Source: a virus
Taxonomy: Duplodnaviria > Heunggongvirae > Uroviricota > Caudoviricetes
DNA length: 26,947 nucleotides
Reading direction: 5' to 3' (one strand)
Virus record (IMG/VR): IMGVR_UViG_2744054854_000001
Location: 1 to 26,947 of that record
This document shows, one piece after another, positions 6,039 to 15,599 of the stretch (position 1 is the first letter of the stretch; each line of letters opens with the position of its first letter). Both the position numbers and the translations under genes were made by a program. Below the pieces are notes generated by a model. That model was not told the origin of the DNA and searched no databases. It was given only the letters and a program-made list of their open reading frames with translations.

Positions 6039-7064
6039 TTAGCGATGCCAGTTGAGGTTATGAAGTGGATTTTTGGTAACGGCATCTTCCAGATGATCCG
6101 GTGCAAAATGGGCATAAATCATGGTCATTTTAATATCAGCGTGCCCTAAAATATCCCTCAATACTAAAATGTTTCCGCCGTTCATCATAAAGTGGCTGGC
6201 GAAAGTGTGGCGCAGAACGTGGGTACATTGACCTTCAGGTAGTTCAATTCCAGCTCGTTTTACCGCACGCTCAAAAGCCTTTCGGCATGGTGTGAATAAC
6301 TTTCCTCTGTTTTTGGGTAATTCTTCATACAGTTCCTGAGAAATAGGAACAGTTCGGTTTTTCTTTCCTTTTGTTTTGGTATAGGTAATTCGATACTTTG
6401 ATATCTGGTTACCTTGCAGGTTTTCGGCTTCGCTCCATCTTGCCCCGGTTGCCAGACAAATCTTGGCAATCATTAGCAGACTGGGACTTTGAGATTCAGC
6501 ACAAGCGTCAAGCAGGCGTTTGATTTCATCAGCAGCAAGGAACGCCAGTTCACCCTCTGCAATTTTGAAAGTTGGCAGACCGGCGAGAGGGTTGGGTGCA
6601 GACCAATGTCCCAGCTTTTTCAGTGTGCCAAAAACTGAGGATAGGTTACGTTGTTCAAGGTTCACCGTTCTGGGCTTAACTGGTGACATGAGCACACCAT
6701 CTTCGTTTTTGACCTCACCTTTTAATCTGGCTTCCCGGTATTTTGTGAAATCACCTGCTGTCAATTCAGAAGCGATGGGATCGCCAAGCCCATTACAAAT
6801 GATTTTTAACTTAGCCATTAATCGCTTAGGGTCAGCGAGTGTCTGACCGTACAGGGAATACCATTGCTCAATCACTTCTGACAGTTGTCGCCGATCTTCC
6901 TTTTCTCCCAGCCAAGGTTTCTTGTTTACCTCGTCCATGGTGAAATTCTCAAACGCAATGGCTTCGCCTTTCGTCGCAAATTGTTTGCGTACGCGTTTGC
7001 CATCTCGCCCGTTTGGGTAGCATTCACATAACCACTTTCCGTTCGGCTGTTTTCTGATGGTCAT
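6039..7064 (-). CDS. int: prophage tyrosine integrase (P2/186 family)
   Basis: 341-aa ORF, catalytic HxLRHTFAS...Y region near C-terminus; start codon 1 nt from the stop of the upstream repressor gene (cI-int operon); 3' end adjacent to the att core. Confidence 0.9.
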   Translation of the reverse strand: MTIRKQPNGKWLCECYPNGRDGKRVRKQFATKGEAIAFENFTMDEVNKKPWLGEKEDRRQLSEVIEQWYSLYGQTLADPKRLMAKLKIICNGLGDPIASELTAGDFTKYREARLKGEVKNEDGVLMSPVKPRTVNLEQRNLSSVFGTLKKLGHWSAPNPLAGLPTFKIAEGELAFLAADEIKRLLDACAESQSPSLLMIAKICLATGARWSEAENLQGNQISKYRITYTKTKGKKNRTVPISQELYEELPKNRGKLFTPCRKAFERAVKRAGIELPEGQCTHVLRHTFASHFMMNGGNILVLRDILGHADIKMTMIYAHFAPDHLEDAVTKNPLHNLNWHR

Positions 7065-7065
7065 A

Positions 7066-7698
7066 TCAAAGGCTCTTAATGATTTTCAGTGCGCGGCCTA
7101 TTACCTTAATGTCATCCAGTTCGCACTCAAACGATGAATCATCCTGATGCACTACTAATCTGTTTCCCGGGAGTCGTGTCAATTTTACAATGCTTTTTAT
7201 CCCGTCGATGTCCACTAACCACGTACCATTTACTGGTGGTGTTTGGTTGCGATCTATTAAATAAGAATCACCAGAAGTAGTCACCAGCAGCAGGTTGCTT
7301 GAGTCTGAGGGGAGTATGCTGCTATCAATGATTGCTTTTCCAGCATCGACCAATAAACCACCGTTGAGAGTTGCCTTTTCAATTTCAGGAGATACAAGCT
7401 CAGAAAGAGGTTTAACCTTGCTGGGGTTCACGGAATTGATATTTTTTTTAGGGTCAATGTTTGAACCTGGCTCGCCCTGTCCGGTGGTTAGCCATAGTAA
7501 AGAAACTCCTGTTTCCAAGGCGCACTGAATCACCCATTCTGCGGGAAAGCTATCTCTTAAGTATCTGTTTGCCATAGTGCTTTTTGATGCACCTAAGTGA
7601 TCGCAAAGTTGCTGTCTGGACTTGAAATCATAGGCTGCCATTAGTCTATGGATAGCCTCTCTTCCCCCTGTATTCTCGCCAGCTTTTACCTGTATCAT
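7066..7698 (-). CDS. cI: 186-type CI immunity repressor
   Basis: 210-aa ORF; N-terminal HTH and C-terminal segment TWLVDIDGIKSIVKLTRLPGNRLVV...FECELDDIKVIGRA closely resembling recalled 186 CI (LWLVDIEGAISIRELTKLPGRKL...FECGIDDIKTLGRV). Confidence 0.8.
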   Translation of the reverse strand: MIQVKAGENTGGREAIHRLMAAYDFKSRQQLCDHLGASKSTMANRYLRDSFPAEWVIQCALETGVSLLWLTTGQGEPGSNIDPKKNINSVNPSKVKPLSELVSPEIEKATLNGGLLVDAGKAIIDSSILPSDSSNLLLVTTSGDSYLIDRNQTPPVNGTWLVDIDGIKSIVKLTRLPGNRLVVHQDDSSFECELDDIKVIGRALKIIKSL

Positions 7699-7817: not shown

Positions 7818-8066
7818 ATGAGCAACGACATTTCAATTCGTGTACCAAAAGTGATGGCGACACCTGCAGAGTTCGCGGAATGGGAAGGCCGCTCTCGCGG
7901 TTCGGTATATCAAATGATTCATAATGGTAAACTCGCTAAGTTTTTGGAAAGAAAGGAAAAACCGAAAGACAGAGTATGCATACGTTACCTTGAGTACAAA
8001 AAGGAACAAGTCAGGAAAAACATGGGCCAATCCAATTTCAACTTTAATGTCATCGTTGGTGACTAA
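7818..8066 (+). CDS. apl: Apl/Cox-like excisionase and transcriptional regulator
   Basis: 82-aa ORF first gene rightward of cI with HTH-like segment TPAEFAEWEGRSRGSVYQMIHNGKL; position identical to apl of 186 / cox of P2. Confidence 0.6.
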   Translation: MSNDISIRVPKVMATPAEFAEWEGRSRGSVYQMIHNGKLAKFLERKEKPKDRVCIRYLEYKKEQVRKNMGQSNFNFNVIVGD

Positions 8067-8098: not shown

Positions 8099-8608
8099 AT
8101 GTTTGATTACAAAATTTCCAAACATCCGCATTTTGATGAAGCCTGTAGAACTTTTGCACTACGTCACAATATGGCGAAGCTGGCAGAACGTGCAGGAATG
8201 AATGTTCAGACACTGAGAAACAAACTCAACCCAGATCAACCGCATCAGCTCACCGCACCAGAAATCTGGCTGCTTACCGATCTGACTGAAGATTCAACGC
8301 TGGTAGATGGTTTTCTGGCTCAGATTCACTGCCTGCCATGCGTACCGATTAATGAGGTGGCAAAAGAGAAACTGCCACATTACGTCATGAGTGCAACCGC
8401 AGAGATCGGGCGTGTTGCTGCAGGTGCGGTATCTGGCGATGTAAAAACCAGTGCAGGTCGTCGTGATGCTATCAGCAGCATTAACTCTGTAACACGACTG
8501 ATGGCGTTGGCTGCTGTTTCATTGCAGGCCCGTTTACAGGCTAACCCTGCGATGGCGAGTGCAGTTGATACCGTGACTGGCCTCGGTGCTTCATTCGGTT
8601 TGCTGTGA
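8099..8608 (+). CDS. cII: CII-like lysogeny establishment regulator (186 type)
   Basis: 169-aa ORF MFDYKISKHPHFDEACRTFALRHNMAKLAERAGMNVQTLRNKLNP... closely matching recalled 186 CII; GGTGG RBS. Confidence 0.8.
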   Translation: MFDYKISKHPHFDEACRTFALRHNMAKLAERAGMNVQTLRNKLNPDQPHQLTAPEIWLLTDLTEDSTLVDGFLAQIHCLPCVPINEVAKEKLPHYVMSATAEIGRVAAGAVSGDVKTSAGRRDAISSINSVTRLMALAAVSLQARLQANPAMASAVDTVTGLGASFGLL

Positions 8609-10398: not shown

Positions 10399-11225
10399 AA
10401 GAAATGCACCACGGAATTCATCATTTCCATGGGACGCCTGTCTGGGGAAGTGCTGGCGACGTTCATCGTATTGCGGTGAGCGGAGCTGGCGCTTTCGTCT
10501 CCTATGTACGACCAGATCAGATTGCGGCGTCCATTCAGCACGCTCAGGTCGTCGGCATTGATAACGGCGCATTTTCTGCATGGGTGCGTGGGCTAAAAAT
10601 TAACTGGAGTGATTTTTATAAATGGCTCCTGAACTATTACCACCATCCTAAGGTCGCTTTTTTTGTCATTCCTGATGTTGTGGACGGCGGTGAACGTGAC
10701 AATGATGCCCTGATAAACGAAGTTCCGAAAATGTTCTACGGGAAGGCAACTCCCGTCTGGCATCTGCACGAGTCAATCGATCGGCTTATCGAGCTATGTC
10801 GTGAATGGCCTCGTGTCTGCTTTGGATCGTCTGGTGAATATGCGGCTATCAGAACTGCGCACTGGCATCGTCGTATGCAGGACGCTTTTGAAGCAATTTA
10901 TTGCCGACACAATTTCAAAACAGCTGTTCATGGTTTGCGCATGCTTGACGGTCGTGTGTTGGGAAATTACCCACTGGCGACTGCCGACAGTACAAATCTT
11001 GCCTGCAATGTCCCCAAATTTAATAGCAAATATCCTGAGCTTACGCGGGCTATTCAGGAGGCTGAGTATTCGCGCAATCTGACGGAAAAGGAGCTGAAAG
11101 CTGTCATTCTGAAAAACCGTTGCGCAATTTTAAAAGGTGCAATTGAAGCTGTTCGCCCACCTTCAGTTTCTGATTGGCTGTCGAATGGTTTGCAGCCTTC
11201 ACAGCTCGAACTGGAGATTGCGTAA
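10395..11225 (+). CDS. TGT-like (tRNA-guanine transglycosylase fold) protein, candidate DpdA-type DNA base-exchange enzyme
   Basis: 276-aa ORF overlapping dam stop and gene A start; ordered motifs GIDNGAF (cf. TGT DSGGFQ), FFVIPD, CFGSSGE (cf. GLAVGE), HGLRMLDG (cf. LMGVGKP) and ADST (cf. FDCVMPT nucleophile Asp); no C-terminal Zn-binding CxCxxC. CDS confidence is high; functional call is tentative. Confidence 0.55.
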
Positions 11226-13576
11226 TGAACTACAGCTATTCCTGGAATGCTGAGAAAAAAGCAATCAATCCTTACGTAGAGACAGAAGAGCAATCTTCAG
11301 TTTCTGCGCTTTCAAACCTGATCGCTCTGTACGCTGCCGATAACGAGCAGGAACACCTGCGCCGCGAGGTACTGAGTGATCAGGTCTGGGAGCGTTATTT
11401 CTTTAATGAATCCCGTGATCCTGTCCAGCGCGAAATGGAGCAGGATAAGCTCATTAGTCGGGCAAAGCTGGCGCATGAGCAGCAGCGTTTTAACCCGGAC
11501 ATGGTCATTCTGGCAGACGTCAGCGCCCAGCCCTCCCATATCAGCAAGCCGCTGATGCAACGTATTGAATACTTCAGCAGCCTGGGCAGGCCAAAGGCTT
11601 ATTCCCGCTATTTACGTGAGACGATTAAGCCATGTCTGGAACGACTGGAGCATGTACGCGACAGCCAGCTATCTGCATCTTTTCGTTTTATGGCAAGCCA
11701 TGTAGGGCTGGACGACCTGCTGATTCTGCCTGAAATGAGTCAGGATCAGGTGAAACGCCTGTCTACCCTTGTCGCTGCGCATATGAGCATGTGCCTTGAT
11801 GCAGCTTGTGGTGATTTGTATGCCACCGATGACGTTAAGCCAGAAGAAATCCGCAAGACATGGGAAAAGGTGGCAGCGGAAACCCTGCGTCTGGATGTCA
11901 TCCCGCCTGCGTTTGAGCAACTCCGCCGGAAAAGAAACCGCCGTAAACCCGTGCCCTATGAACTCATTCCGGGTTCGCTGGCGCGTATGTTGTGCGCCGA
12001 CTGGTGGTACCGGAAATTATGGAAGATGCGTTGCGAATGGCGGGAAGAGCAGTTGCGTGCTGTCTGCCTGGTCAGCAAAAAAGCATCTCCCTATGTCAGC
12101 TATGAAGCCGTGATGCATAAACGTGAGCAGCGCCGTAAGTCGCTGGAGTTTTTTCGTTCTCATGAACTGGTGAACGAAGACGGCGACACGCTGGACATGG
12201 AGGATGTGGTAAACGCCAGCAGCAGCAACCCTGCGCATCGCCGCAATGAGATGATGGCCTGTGTTAAAGGCCTGGAGCTTATCGCGGAAATGCGTGGTGA
12301 CTGCGCCGTTTTCTACACCATTACCTGTCCGTCACGTTTCCATTCCACGCTCAATAACGGCAGACCAAACCCAACCTGGACAAATGCGACGGTAAGACAA
12401 AGCAGCGATTATCTGGTCGGCATGTTTGCTGCATTTCGTAAGGCGATGCACAAAGCCGGGTTGCGCTGGTATGGCGTGCGGGTGGCTGAGCCGCATCATG
12501 ACGGTACGGTTCACTGGCACCTGTTGTGTTTCATGCGCAAAAAAGACCGCCGTGCCATTACTGCATTGTTGCGTAAGTTTGCCATCCGTGAAGACCGCGA
12601 GGAACTGGGTAATAACACTGGGCCGCGCTTTAAGTCTGAGTTGATTAACCCGCGCAAAGGTACGCCAACAAGCTACATCGCGAAATACATCAGTAAGAAC
12701 ATTGACGGGCGTGGTCTGGCTGGCGAGATCAGCAAGGAAACGGGGAAATCCCTTCGTGATAATGCTGAATACGTTAATGCCTGGGCGTCTCTGCATCGTG
12801 TTCAGCAATTCCGCTTCTTTGGCATTCCGGGGCGTCAGGCTTACCGTGAACTGCGATTGCTGGCTGGTCAGGCGGCAAGGCAACAGGGGGACAAAAAAGC
12901 AGGTGCGCCGGTACTGGATAACCCGCGCCTTGATGCCATCCTGGCTGCTGCTGATGCTGGTTGTTTTGCCACCTACATCATGAAGCAGGGCGGCGTACTG
13001 GTTCCCCGCAAATATCACTTGATCAGAACCGCTTATGAAATCAATGAAGAGCCGACCGCCTATGGCGATCACGGTATTCGTATTTATGGCATCTGGTCAC
13101 CCATTGCAGAGGGCAAGATCTGCACTCATGCAGTGAAGTGGAAAATGGTTCGTAAAGCCGTTGACGTTCAGGAGGCGGTAGCCGACCAGGGCGCTTGCGC
13201 CCCTTGGACTCGTGGCAATAACTGTCCCCCTGTTGAAAATCTGAACAAATCAGGGGGTGATTTGCCAGATATTAAAACCATGAATGAGCAGGAACTGCAC
13301 GATTACCTCCACAATATGGGCCAGAAGGAACGCCGGGAGCTGACAGCCAGGTTAAGACTGGTAAAACCGAAGCGGAAAAAAGCATTCAAACAGAGTATTT
13401 CGGAGCAGCAGCGCCTGCAGCTTGAGGCAGAACTGACTGCCAGAGGGTTTGAAGGTAGTGCATCTGAGATTGATTTGCTTCTGCGTGGTGGCAGCATTCC
13501 GTCAGGTGCCGGGCTACGGATTTTTTACCGCAACCATCGACTGCAGGAAGATGACAAATGGCGCCAGTGGTACTGA
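11225..13576 (+). CDS. A: replication initiation endonuclease gpA (rolling-circle initiator)
   Basis: Start ATG 11225 overlapping upstream stop (track start 11174); HUH motif HWHLLCF and tyrosine motif YIAKYISKN; size and position as P2/186 A. Confidence 0.9.
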
Positions 13577-13672
13577 CGGCAAGGCTTTAACAATTCATGC
13601 TCTTAACGACCATCGTAAGAACGTTCTCATTGACGGATAAAAAATATTTTACTTTTGGATATCAGGGGTATA

Positions 13673-13688
13673 CTGTATATATAAACAG
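13673..13688 (+). promoter_or_regulatory. LexA box (SOS operator) of the prophage SOS/antirepressor operon
   Basis: CTGTATATATAAACAG (CTGT-N8-ACAG, flanked TA...TG) overlapping TATACT -10-like hexamer at 13669-13674; TTGACG at 13630-13635 upstream. Confidence 0.75.
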
Positions 13689-13737
13689 TGGATATGCATA
13701 CAGTTAACGCATGTCCGGGGTCGTGATAGGAGGGAAG

Positions 13738-13926
13738 ATGCAGGACTATCTTTTGGAGTCGTTGAAGCTCCAGCGCATTGATTTTTTTATTAAGCTTGTA
13801 GCGGCTAGTGAGTGCAGCGACGAAGAAAAGCGGCTGGCTATCCAGTGGGTGTCTGAATTGACCGACGAGCTGATGGCGAAAATCCGCAGCCATGAATACT
13901 GCCGGTCAATGGACGTAACCAGTTAA
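13738..13926 (+). CDS. small SOS-operon protein, candidate Tum-type antirepressor N-terminal part
   Basis: ATG 13738 with strong AGGAGG RBS (track start 13711); first ORF downstream of LexA box; position equals tum of 186. Confidence 0.45.
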   Translation: MQDYLLESLKLQRIDFFIKLVAASECSDEEKRLAIQWVSELTDELMAKIRSHEYCRSMDVTS

Positions 13927-13937
13927 GGGAAATCTGT

Positions 13938-14171
13938 ATGCGCATTGAAATAATGATCGATAAAGAGCAGAAGATTAGCCAGGCTACACTGGACGCCCTT
14001 GAATCCGAGCTTTACCGTAATTTGCGCCCTCTGTATCCCAAAACAGCAATTCGTATCCGTAAGGGCAGTGCCAACGGCGTTGAGCTGAGCGGGTTAAAAC
14101 TGGATGAAGATAAAAAGCGAGTGATGGAAATAATGCAGCAGGTCTGGGAGGACGACAGCTGGTTACATTAG
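13938..14171 (+). CDS. DinI-family protein
   Basis: 77-aa ORF MRIEIMIDKEQKISQATLDALESELYRNLRPLYP...KRVMEIMQQVWEDDSW collinear with recalled E. coli DinI (MRIEVTI...ALAGELSRRIQ...QRISEILQETWESADDW). Confidence 0.75.
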   Translation: MRIEIMIDKEQKISQATLDALESELYRNLRPLYPKTAIRIRKGSANGVELSGLKLDEDKKRVMEIMQQVWEDDSWLH

Positions 14172-14305
14172 CGAACGTTGCGGACGATAAAACTGGTTTT
14201 TACCGTCCGCAAGGTTGAACAACGAGCCACGCGAGGCGTTAGTGCTGTTGTGCATGTCTATGCCGCATGAAATCGCATGATCGTTTGAGGATCGTTTTTG
14301 CTCAG

Positions 14306-14332
14306 GCCCGCCAGAACTGGCGGGCTTTTGCT
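14306..14332 (+). terminator. rho-independent terminator after the SOS operon
   Basis: GCCCGCCAG-AACT-CTGGCGGGC followed by TTTTG. Confidence 0.6.
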
Positions 14333-14374
14333 TATGTCATGCAGGTGCATGAAAACCACTACACAAAGCGGGCA

Positions 14375-14393
14375 GGCGTGGCGGGGATACGAG
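14375..14393. other. candidate cos site (cohesive end region)
   Basis: GGCGTGGCGGGGATACGAG resembles the 19-nt cohesive ends of P2/186 as recalled (GGCG-GGCGGGGA...); located in the non-coding region just beyond the 3' end of portal gene Q, as in P2. Exact ends not verifiable here. Confidence 0.4.
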
Positions 14394-14463
14394 CGCGCGC
14401 AACGGGGTAAAATGGCCAAAATCCGGCACAGCCTCTGGCCCGCTGGCGGCCTCATTTAGTGGA

Positions 14464-14473
14464 GGGGGGGGGG
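14464..14473. repeat. G10 homopolymer tract in the cos-proximal intergenic region
   Basis: Ten consecutive G read directly at 14464-14473. Confidence 0.9.
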
Positions 14474-14555
14474 AGATTCAGGGCAAAAAGAAACGCCCCG
14501 CAGAATGCTGCTGAGGCGTTGTGAGAGTTGGTCGGGTTTTGATGTTATGAGTATG

Positions 14556-15599
14556 TCAGCCTCGTTTGCCCTTAAGCCCTAAGTCATAAGCTTCAAAACG
14601 GATCACCTCTTCATTCAGCCAGTCATTCAGCTCCTGCAGTCGCTTTTGCAGTGGCATCAGTTCATTGCGGACGAAGACACGGCTCGCTTTTTCCACATCA
14701 CCAAAGCCGCCAGTGTTGTTGGGAATGATGCCCATCATTTGCGGCGGTACGCGGTGAGCCGCCATCATGTCATCGCGGCTGACGTTCTTGATGTTCAGAA
14801 ATTCATCCTTCGCCGCGACTTCCGACAACGGGATAATCTGAATGCCATCTTTTTTGCCGTTAGGCGAGTACATAAACAGGTTGCGGAAGTTGCCCGGCCC
14901 TTTAGCACTTTTCATTGCCTTGCGGATGTTGTTCACATCCTCCTGGTTCTGCGCGGCGTCGGTCATGTACATGATGAAGCCTGCGTGGCTGCCGTTAATG
15001 TAATACTTGCGGCGGAACAGCGTGGCGGATTCGTTGAGCAGAGCTGACGGAATGGCAGAAAGGTAACCCGGCAGACCATAAATCTCCTGGTTGATATCCG
15101 GCTCCATCAGGTGGAAGACGTTACCTTTTGTGAACTGATACGGCTGTGTCGTCAGGCTGTATTGCACAAACCAGTATGTTTCAAGGTCAAGCCCGCGCCG
15201 GGTGTATTTTGCCAGTGCAGGCTCCAGCGAAATAACTTCACCAAAGCGATTCGTGCGCTTCTCCAGATAGGCGTTACCAAAAACCAGATAGTCCTGCACA
15301 AAACGGGTAAATGCCTGCTGGCTGAGAAGGCGATGTGGAATATAGGTACTGCTGATGATGTCACGTTTAACACTGATCGGGGAGCTGTGGTGCACGGCGG
15401 CGCGGAAGGTTCGTGCCAGTCCGTCAAAACTGACGGGCGGCTCATACCAGCGATCCATCTGTACGCATTCCACATAGTCCAGCAGTTCGCGGCGGTCCAG
15501 TACAGGAATGGGATCACCAAAGCTGAAAGCCTCAGCAACGGGTTTTTTAGTTTCTTCTGCAGTTACGGTTTCGCCTGGCGCGATATGTTCTTTCATCAA
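14556..15599 (-). CDS. Q: portal protein gpQ
   Basis: 347-aa ORF, 4-nt overlap with terminase gene P; size and position as P2 Q next to cos. Confidence 0.85.
   Translation of the reverse strand: MMKEHIAPGETVTAEETKKPVAEAFSFGDPIPVLDRRELLDYVECVQMDRWYEPPVSFDGLARTFRAAVHHSSPISVKRDIISSTYIPHRLLSQQAFTRFVQDYLVFGNAYLEKRTNRFGEVISLEPALAKYTRRGLDLETYWFVQYSLTTQPYQFTKGNVFHLMEPDINQEIYGLPGYLSAIPSALLNESATLFRRKYYINGSHAGFIMYMTDAAQNQEDVNNIRKAMKSAKGPGNFRNLFMYSPNGKKDGIQIIPLSEVAAKDEFLNIKNVSRDDMMAAHRVPPQMMGIIPNNTGGFGDVEKASRVFVRNELMPLQKRLQELNDWLNEEVIRFEAYDLGLKGKRG

Follow-up and report, generated by a model that had tools for sequence, protein, structure and literature searches.

The segment between the replicase gene and cos in the window (the entire 26,947-nt stretch of viral DNA analyzed here) reads, with a probability of about 0.87, as the SOS operon, intact and in its natural two-gene tumA-tumB form, of a prophage of the 186/Fels-2 type (Peduoviridae), working through the mechanism proposed below. 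Its components are a putative LexA-controlled promoter, a 62-aa open reading frame (ORF1) that resembles the antirepressor half of the 186 Tum protein at the profile level, a 77-aa DinI-family reading frame (ORF2), and an intrinsic terminator. A preliminary description of the same DNA had proposed a split or bipartite tum and had listed a frameshifted gene, a sequencing error, and a genuine two-gene arrangement as its possible origins; it is the last of these that proves correct, in keeping with the layouts of PsP3 and Fels-2. Every sequence feature in that description is confirmed, each lying no more than a few bases from where it had been placed.

Prophage organization and position of the SOS module

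The window is a 186/Fels-2-like (Peduoviridae) prophage in which the gene order of 186 is kept (int, cI, apl, cII, and farther along replicase A, the SOS module, cos, and portal), in agreement with the annotated 186 map. The integrase gene (6039-7064) and the gene for a 186-type CI immunity repressor (7066-7698), the presumed target of ORF1, are on the minus strand and are followed by apl/cox (7818-8066), cII (8099-8608), and a P2-A-type replicase gene (11174-13576), and the portal gene (14556-15599, minus strand) lies 3' of the SOS module. The cos site, GGCGTGGCGGGGATACGAG (14375-14393), matches the 19-nt cohesive end of 186, GGCGTGGCGGGGAAAGCAT, at 14 of 19 positions, the first 13 of which are identical, and the sequence just upstream of it also matches the 186 right end. 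With cos identified at 14375-14393, the SOS module is the last transcription unit before cos, as it is in 186. An Rfam search of 13400-14700 returned no RNA family.

The predicted SOS promoter and its LexA operator

By analogy with the geometry of the 186 promoter p95, the equivalent promoter in the window is assigned a -35 hexamer TTTACT (13648-13653, plus strand), which reads TTTACA in most of the 34 homologous loci, and, after a spacing of 17 bp, a -10 hexamer TACTGT (13671-13676, plus strand), with TATACT at 13669-13674 as an alternative. A strict sigma-70 consensus scan of the window called no promoter. In 186, p95 is annotated with a -35 TTCACA, a 17-bp spacing, and a -10 TACTGT that makes up the first 6 nt of the LexA site, the same geometry as in the window, with the -10 inside the LexA site.

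LexA box 1, CTGTATATATAAACAG (13673-13688, plus strand), is one of two matches to CTGT-N8-ACAG in the window, where 0.45 would be expected by chance, and the 20-mer that contains it (13671-13690) agrees with the consensus TACTGTATATATATACAGTA at 18 of 20 positions. The preliminary description had placed a canonical LexA box over a -10-like hexamer upstream of the 62-aa ORF, and this holds; box 1 overlaps TACTGT, the overlap is kept across homologous loci, and CTG-N10-CAG stands at the box 1 position in 33 of 35 sequences (the 34 loci plus the window). The other CTGT-N8-ACAG match (14031-14046, inside ORF2) was considered as a LexA site and rejected; it survives in just 6 of 16 homologues, is lost through synonymous changes, and is taken to be incidental to the L-Y-P-K-T-A codons.

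LexA box 2, GTGGATATGCATACAG (13688-13703, plus strand), shares one G with box 1 and is degenerate, with only 14 of the 20 positions of its 20-mer agreeing with the consensus. An ACAG stands in register with it in 23 of 33 loci, about a third of the loci lack the box, and ACAG at any other offset within the next 40 nt occurs only three times in these 33 loci. This second box is absent from the preliminary description. In their sequence and spacing, boxes 1 and 2 together qualify as a colicin-type double overlapping SOS operator, to which LexA is predicted to bind. Here the window and 186 differ, with two overlapping boxes in the former and a single LexA box in the latter; a MAFFT alignment in which box 2 was paired with the LexA box of 186 was set aside in favor of promoter geometry.

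A BLAST comparison of the operator with plasmids matched 855 of them, mostly small mobilizable plasmids, and in pCol-let and a pCol-let-like plasmid the match is immediately upstream of the colicin Y gene. The operator and the boxes of the colicin Y promoter in pCol-let and pNGF1 align base for base, with TACTGTATATATAAACAGTGGATATGCATACAGT in the window facing the TGCTGTACATAAAACCAGTGGTTATGTATACAGT that precedes cya, the colicin Y gene. Double operators of the colicin type are bound by two LexA dimers, which repress tightly and delay induction. By analogy, the prophage may use a colicin-like device in which the antirepressor is kept tightly off until LexA is strongly depleted.

ORF1 and its relationship to Tum

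ORF1 (13738-13926, plus strand) codes for a 62-aa protein, here considered a tumA-like antirepressor by virtue of its remote homology to the Tum N-terminal domain, and ends with a TAA stop codon at 13924-13926. The strong AGGAGG ribosome-binding site noted for this ORF in the preliminary description is confirmed at 13728-13733 (plus strand), 4 nt before the ATG at 13738, and TAGGAGGGAA at this site is kept in nearly all loci. Some ORF1 proteins in the databases have N-terminal extensions, which are variable and read through the promoter and operator.

Pairwise comparison does not connect ORF1 with Tum; BLASTP of ORF1 against 186 Tum (including residues 1 to 70) and PsP3 TumA gave no alignment, a Pfam search found no family for it, and a PDB sequence search with ORF1 returned nothing meaningful and no solved structure. 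Profile comparisons do make the connection. Against PHROG, ORF1 matches its own family, phrog_698 (2.8e-36), followed by phrog_8554 (4e-8) and phrog_1993 (0.0014), the family defined by PsP3 TumA, and residues 1-70 of 186 Tum match phrog_1993 (1.5e-23), phrog_8554 (3e-12), and phrog_698 (5.9e-6), with Tum residues 6-44 falling on phrog_698 positions 6-44, in the same register. An hhalign comparison of a shallow ORF1-family profile with Tum is suggestive only (P 0.0015), and PsP3 TumA is a weak match to the ORF1-family profile (ORF1 to phrog_1993, E 0.0014; hhalign P 0.003). A broader ORF1 profile, built from 38 distant members together with the close relatives, aligns with the 186 Tum N-terminal family by hhalign (columns 3-44 to 3-44; 96.7% probability, E 3.2e-10), and hmmsearch with it gives 33 bits over residues 5-43 of 186 Tum, the homology being clear only once the distant members are added. 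Alignment to 186 Tum, a check suggested in the preliminary description, is thus negative for ORF1 by BLASTP and positive by profile, and these PHROG, hhalign, and hmmsearch links together support ORF1 as a remote homologue of the N-terminal, antirepressor half of Tum, at the profile level only.

ORF1 homologues make up 480 protein clusters, and when 1.84 billion representative proteins were searched exhaustively with the HMM of the ORF1 family, 86 matches were obtained, nearly all of which are standalone proteins of 44-100 aa with the pattern QRI-L--RLV----C---DK-LA--W--EL. In the AlphaFold2 model of ORF1 (pLDDT 89.7), two helices (2-23 and 28-61) form a hairpin whose turn contains the conserved Cys; Foldseek matched nothing in BFVD to this model at E<=0.001, and a 62-aa helical hairpin makes such a search uninformative. 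No experiment on the ORF1 family (phrog_698) was found in the literature, and the antirepressor role that we infer for it draws on remote homology, position, and regulation.

The CI repressor as the presumed target

The CI repressor (7066-7698) contains PF07022 and PF16452 domains and is 33% identical to 186 CI, and a domain search detected no LexA-like S24 self-cleavage domain in it; an antirepressor is therefore needed for SOS induction. ORF1 proteins that are 87-97% identical occur in phages whose CI proteins are only 37-57% identical overall, and such near-identical ORF1 proteins alongside divergent repressors require either a conserved target surface or broad specificity.

A conserved target surface would be supplied by covariation of the CI N-terminal domain. 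In an alignment of 11 CI proteins, which is a small sample of phages that are not phylogenetically independent, the six phages with an ORF1-type antirepressor have CI N-terminal helix-turn-helix (HTH) domains that are 56-76% identical and share the motif SKSTMANR--RD-FPA-W-I-C-LETG. These domains are 30-46% identical to those of four phages with a 186-type Tum, which are 59-75% identical among themselves, and PsP3, with its own TumA type, has a third CI N-terminal type. For the CI C-terminal domain, identity within the ORF1 group is 24-35%, no higher than between groups. The N-terminal domain of CI therefore groups by antirepressor type and the C-terminal domain does not, which suggests that the antirepressor recognizes the DNA-binding domain, and we hypothesize that this would apply to ORF1 and the N-terminal DNA-binding domain of the CI encoded in the window.

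ORF2 and the downstream architecture

ORF2 (tumB; 13938-14171, plus strand) codes for a 77-aa protein of the DinI family, as the preliminary description had stated, and matches Pfam DinI (PF06183) at 84.1 bits (cut-off 24.2; 8.8e-24) over profile positions 2-63 of 63. It has a G-rich ribosome-binding site, AAGGGA (13925-13930, plus strand), in the 11-nt ORF1-ORF2 spacer. ORF2 is 91% identical to PsP3 TumB and 41% identical to residues 71-145 of 186 Tum, and it aligns over its full length with Escherichia coli DinI (PDB 1GHH and 7YWA; E 6.5e-9), with which it has in common an acidic C-terminal helix and a W-E-D/W motif; unlike E. coli DinI, ORF2 is phage encoded and adjoins a putative antirepressor gene. 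These similarities support ORF2 as equivalent to the C-terminal, DinI-like half of Tum, and its family membership suggests that it acts on RecA filaments and tunes the SOS signal.

Two structures are predicted 3' of ORF2. A stable hairpin that lacks a U-tract (14174-14216, plus strand; -21.6 kcal/mol, z = -4.4) sits within a conserved block (14172-14242), at the position of t95a, a partial terminator that is annotated directly after tum in 186. The intrinsic terminator proper, equivalent to t95b and ending the SOS operon (14304-14332, plus strand), has a G+C-rich stem (14304-14327; -22.2 kcal/mol, z = -4.8) followed by a U-run, in accord with the terminator reported in the preliminary description, and is contained together with cos in a second conserved block (~14247-14400). 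In many loci these two blocks are separated by unrelated cargo of roughly 0.3-1.5 kb. The site is occupied by orf97 in 186 and by two genes in Fels-2; in the window, by contrast, it is empty, and the stretch from the DinI gene to the terminator contains neither an orf97-like gene nor any other cargo. In loci without DinI, the equivalent of the first block directly follows ORF1, and DinI thus behaves as an optional cassette.

The two-gene arrangement and alternative readings

ORF1 and ORF2 are separated by the TAA stop codon at 13924, the 11-nt spacer, and a change of reading frame. The last upstream stop in the ORF2 frame is at 13893 and the ORF1 frame closes at 13924, and both frames are consequently open only between 13896 and 13923, exactly as noted in the preliminary description. 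The same pair of 189-nt and 234-nt genes is annotated likewise in Yersinia phage MLG42 and in Fels-2, and the PsP3 pair is annotated as tumA ("similar to 5' end 186 tum; UV induction of prophage") and tumB. Among phage records, 58 contain an ORF1 that is 80-100% identical to that of the window (100% in SopEPhi), and the split layout is common to about 60-66 phage records.

None of the 34 loci compared, which come from genomes of different species, has an interruption in ORF1 (62 aa in 29 loci, and otherwise 56-78 aa). DinI-like sequence is present 3' of ORF1 in 20 of the 34 and absent in the other 14; where present, the DinI ORF is intact (77 aa) in 16 of 20 and truncated or frameshifted in four. 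Of the 20 loci with DinI-like sequence, 19 have an ORF1-ORF2 spacer of 9-12 nt and a separate ATG for ORF2, and a GGGG/AGGG motif is conserved in the spacers. All three relative frames of ORF1 and ORF2 occur among the loci, and the stop codon is kept even when the two are in frame. Purifying selection acts strongly on both ORFs (dN/dS about 0.07), with median pairwise values of 0.068 for ORF1 and 0.063 for ORF2.

There is no true ORF1-DinI fusion among the 86 representatives from the 1.84 billion proteins, these being small standalone proteins, fragments, or artefacts. One database protein, P0054, was considered as a natural fusion and rejected; in its contig a TAG codon is followed, after a spacer of 9 nt, by an ATG in frame, and the fusion is a gene-calling artefact because the caller read TAG as Gln. 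Standalone 63-72 aa "Tum proteins" are also common in the 186-type N-terminal family. The combination of antirepressor and DinI in one polypeptide, the 146-aa form of 186 Tum, does not occur in the window, and the locus is assigned to the split tumA/tumB form rather than to fused Tum because the separation is kept across the ORF1 family. Programmed frameshifting at 13896-13923 is already unlikely, as the frame relation differs between species.

The split is the native state, and the two-gene tumA-tumB form is already known in the literature. Lemire 2011 (PMC3121763, citing Bunny 2002) describes tum of both Fels-2 and PSP3 as divided by a stop codon and the downstream PSP3 gene as a DinI homologue; the assignment of antirepressor activity to the upstream PSP3 gene is given there second-hand, as a personal communication. 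The same two-ORF layout in homologous phages, which the preliminary description had itself named, when joined to a functional antirepressor, as evidence against a broken tum, is found in PsP3 (tumA/tumB) and Fels-2. What stands of the split or bipartite tum originally proposed is that the two ORFs match the two halves of Tum (ORF1 by profile), and what does not stand is that they were broken from one gene, the split being conserved.

An ancestral single Tum ORF that was recently disrupted in this prophage by a frameshift or nonsense mutation, altering its inducibility, could be argued from 186 Tum, in which the counterparts of ORF1 and ORF2 are the two halves of one 146-aa protein, and from the overlapping frames at 13896-13923, where one indel could fuse the two. 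The comparative data refute this reading and leave it highly improbable; the split is the conserved norm, being common to about 66 phage records and to the 34 species-level loci, the spacer and relative frame vary between species with the stop codon nonetheless kept, ORF2 always has its own ATG and G-rich ribosome-binding site, both ORFs have the low dN/dS values given above, and ORF1 occurs without any DinI gene in 14 loci and in no true fusion of its type. An error of sequencing or assembly at 13890-13940 that artificially splits one gene is less probable still, to the point of being negligible. It has the short overlap of open frames in its favor and nothing beyond, and against it the junction AGTTAAGGGAAATCTGTATG is near-identical in independent assemblies (AGTTAAGGGGAATCTGTATG in loci L007 and L008 and AGTTAAAGGGAATCTGTATG in L014 and L015), with no homopolymer run longer than 3 at the ORF1-ORF2 junction.

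An alternative of a different kind is that ORF1 is an SOS-induced small protein with another job, such as host takeover, division inhibition, or anti-defense, and that prophage induction depends on something else. ORF1 has no Pfam family or solved structure, its fold search is uninformative, its likeness to the experimentally studied Tum is seen only with profiles, and its sequence does not follow overall CI identity, all of which would be compatible with such a role. Against these points are the profile homology to the Tum N-terminal domain in the same register, a position and LexA control that are the same as those of tum in 186 and tumA in PsP3, a CI without a self-cleavage domain and the need for an antirepressor that this creates, the constancy of ORF1, alone among the genes of the module, from locus to locus, and a CI N-terminal domain that varies together with the type of antirepressor. 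We consider another job for ORF1 unlikely, albeit less remote than either a disrupted gene or a sequencing error, and favor a LexA-controlled antirepressor.

Discussion

An intact two-gene tumA-tumB operon would act as follows. In an undamaged lysogen, LexA on the double operator would keep the promoter shut, with box 1 covering the -10 and the start site and box 2 being immediately downstream. Upon DNA damage, RecA-stimulated self-cleavage of LexA would open the promoter and give rise to one short mRNA ending at the terminator (14304-14332), from which two small proteins would be translated independently. The ORF1 helical hairpin would then bind the non-cleavable 186-type CI, probably through the N-terminal DNA-binding domain of the latter, and take it off its operators, with the prophage entering lytic growth. 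ORF2 would act on RecA filaments and tune the SOS signal, as an accessory cassette rather than as a part of the antirepressor.

Two aspects of this organization may not have been described before. These are a Fels-2/SopEPhi-type SOS promoter with a colicin-like double overlapping LexA operator, which, if true, makes the antirepressor a tightly repressed, late SOS function, and the division of Tum-like antirepressors into at least three sequence classes (186, PsP3, and Fels-2/window). Each antirepressor class may pair with its own CI N-terminal class, whatever the CI C-terminal domain, and this pairing, if true, implies that a helical-hairpin antirepressor recognizes the DNA-binding domain of CI. 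The DinI gene would in turn be a freely gained and lost accessory cassette that is fused to the antirepressor in 186. The combination of a double colicin-like operator, Tum classes paired with CI N-terminal classes, and a DinI accessory cassette is put forward tentatively, at somewhat less than even odds.

ORF1 is a "hypothetical protein" in nearly every record, and its annotation as a TumA-like LexA-controlled antirepressor is reasonable, as is that of ORF2 as TumB/DinI. The prophage in the window should be predicted to be SOS inducible and not defective, which bears on the mobility of cargo in this class of prophages, of which SopEPhi is a member. The arrangement has little importance beyond correct annotation, and the double operator and CI covariation lead to testable hypotheses on induction timing, antirepressor specificity, and cross-talk among P2/186-like prophages.

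Among known systems, the closest in layout are PsP3 tumA/tumB and Fels-2 STM2728/STM2726.1, both from 186-like Salmonella phages and each a pair of small ORFs (about 60 and 77 aa) located, as in the window, between replicase gene A and cos and behind a LexA box. ORF1 shares 87% identity with Fels-2 STM2728, has the same sequence as the SopEPhi ORF (100%), and belongs to this Fels-2/SopEPhi type (phrog_698), to which the PsP3 TumA type (phrog_1993) is only remotely similar. Phage 186 has tum at the same genome position as the SOS module of the window and a CI of the same family; the Tum N-terminal domain is a homologue of ORF1 and its DinI-like C-terminal domain of ORF2, and the two domains are fused in one 146-aa polypeptide in 186 and encoded by two ORFs in the window. 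The 186 record also annotates an internal GTG start that gives a DinI-only product, and because of this 186 too yields the two activities separately. The Salmonella Gifsy dinI-gfoA/gftA operons are LexA repressed and code for a DinI homologue and a small antirepressor that acts on a non-cleavable repressor (PMC3121763), the same pairing of functions under LexA control as in the window, and they differ in having dinI first, in belonging to lambdoid phages, and in having antirepressor and repressor families unrelated to those of the window. The operator itself has its counterpart in the colicin Y (pCol-let) and colicin E1 operons, in which two 16-nt LexA boxes likewise overlap by one base; those operators control a colicin, whereas that of the window would control a prophage antirepressor.

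Predicted SOS control upstream of the putative antirepressor gene

The canonical LexA box upstream of ORF1 (13673 to 13688) is followed by a second, degenerate LexA box predicted from the sequence at 13688 to 13703, such that the two overlap by a single base. Of 33 homologous loci, 23 have kept box 2 in the same register, and the pair aligns with the colicin Y promoters of pCol-let-type plasmids; together, the two boxes form a predicted colicin-type double SOS operator. Another exact CTGT-N8-ACAG sequence, CTGTATCCCAAAACAG (14031 to 14046), lies within the DinI-like ORF (ORF2, 13938 to 14171) and is retained in just 6 of 16 homologues, with the losses accounted for by synonymous changes. The codons for L-Y-P-K-T-A probably gave rise to this match by chance.

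The putative antirepressor family and the CI repressors

ORF1 (13738 to 13926) codes for the tumA-like putative antirepressor, and many distant standalone members of its family share a conserved glycine-rich C-terminal tail, KNPQ-GG---G-(L/F)Q, as in the representatives P0265, P0273, P0279, P0282, P0296, P0297, P0300, and P0307 to P0310; this tail is absent from the ORF1 protein of the window. Among L051 (an ENA metagenome contig), L006, L010, L023, and L038, several loci carry a DinI-like gene disrupted by truncation or a frameshift next to an intact upstream antirepressor ORF. An apparent fusion protein is false, because some metagenome gene calls took TAG for a sense codon.

Comparison of the window CI (7066 to 7698, minus strand) with other Peduoviridae CI repressors shows that classes of the N-terminal helix-turn-helix domain correspond to antirepressor classes, namely, the Fels-2/window, 186, and PsP3 types. 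The CI C-terminal domain has no such correspondence, and it differs greatly among phages with nearly identical ORF1 proteins.

The probable cos region and the cargo site

The sequence GGCGTGGCGGGGATACGAG (14375 to 14393) is a probable cos cohesive-end sequence, as judged from its identity to 186 cos at 14 of 19 positions, including the first 13, and from the match of the sequence just before it to the 186 right end. A 47-aa ORF (14267 to 14410) runs across the terminator and cos and is probably spurious; its equivalent in phage MLG42 is annotated as a hypothetical protein. A run of ∼10 G residues is located shortly past cos, at 14462 to 14473.

The DinI-like gene is directly followed by a hairpin of very high stability that lacks a U-tract (14174 to 14216). 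This hairpin sits where 186 has its partial terminator t95a, and it is also conserved in loci without a DinI gene. Between the conserved blocks at 14172 to 14242 and ∼14247 to 14400 is a cargo (moron) insertion hotspot (∼14243 to 14250), the equivalent of which in other species contains roughly 0.3 to 1.5 kbp of unrelated genes, including those for a putative DNA methyltransferase and predicted membrane proteins of 264 to 280 aa. The site is empty in the window, whereas 186 carries orf97 there and Fels-2 carries two genes.
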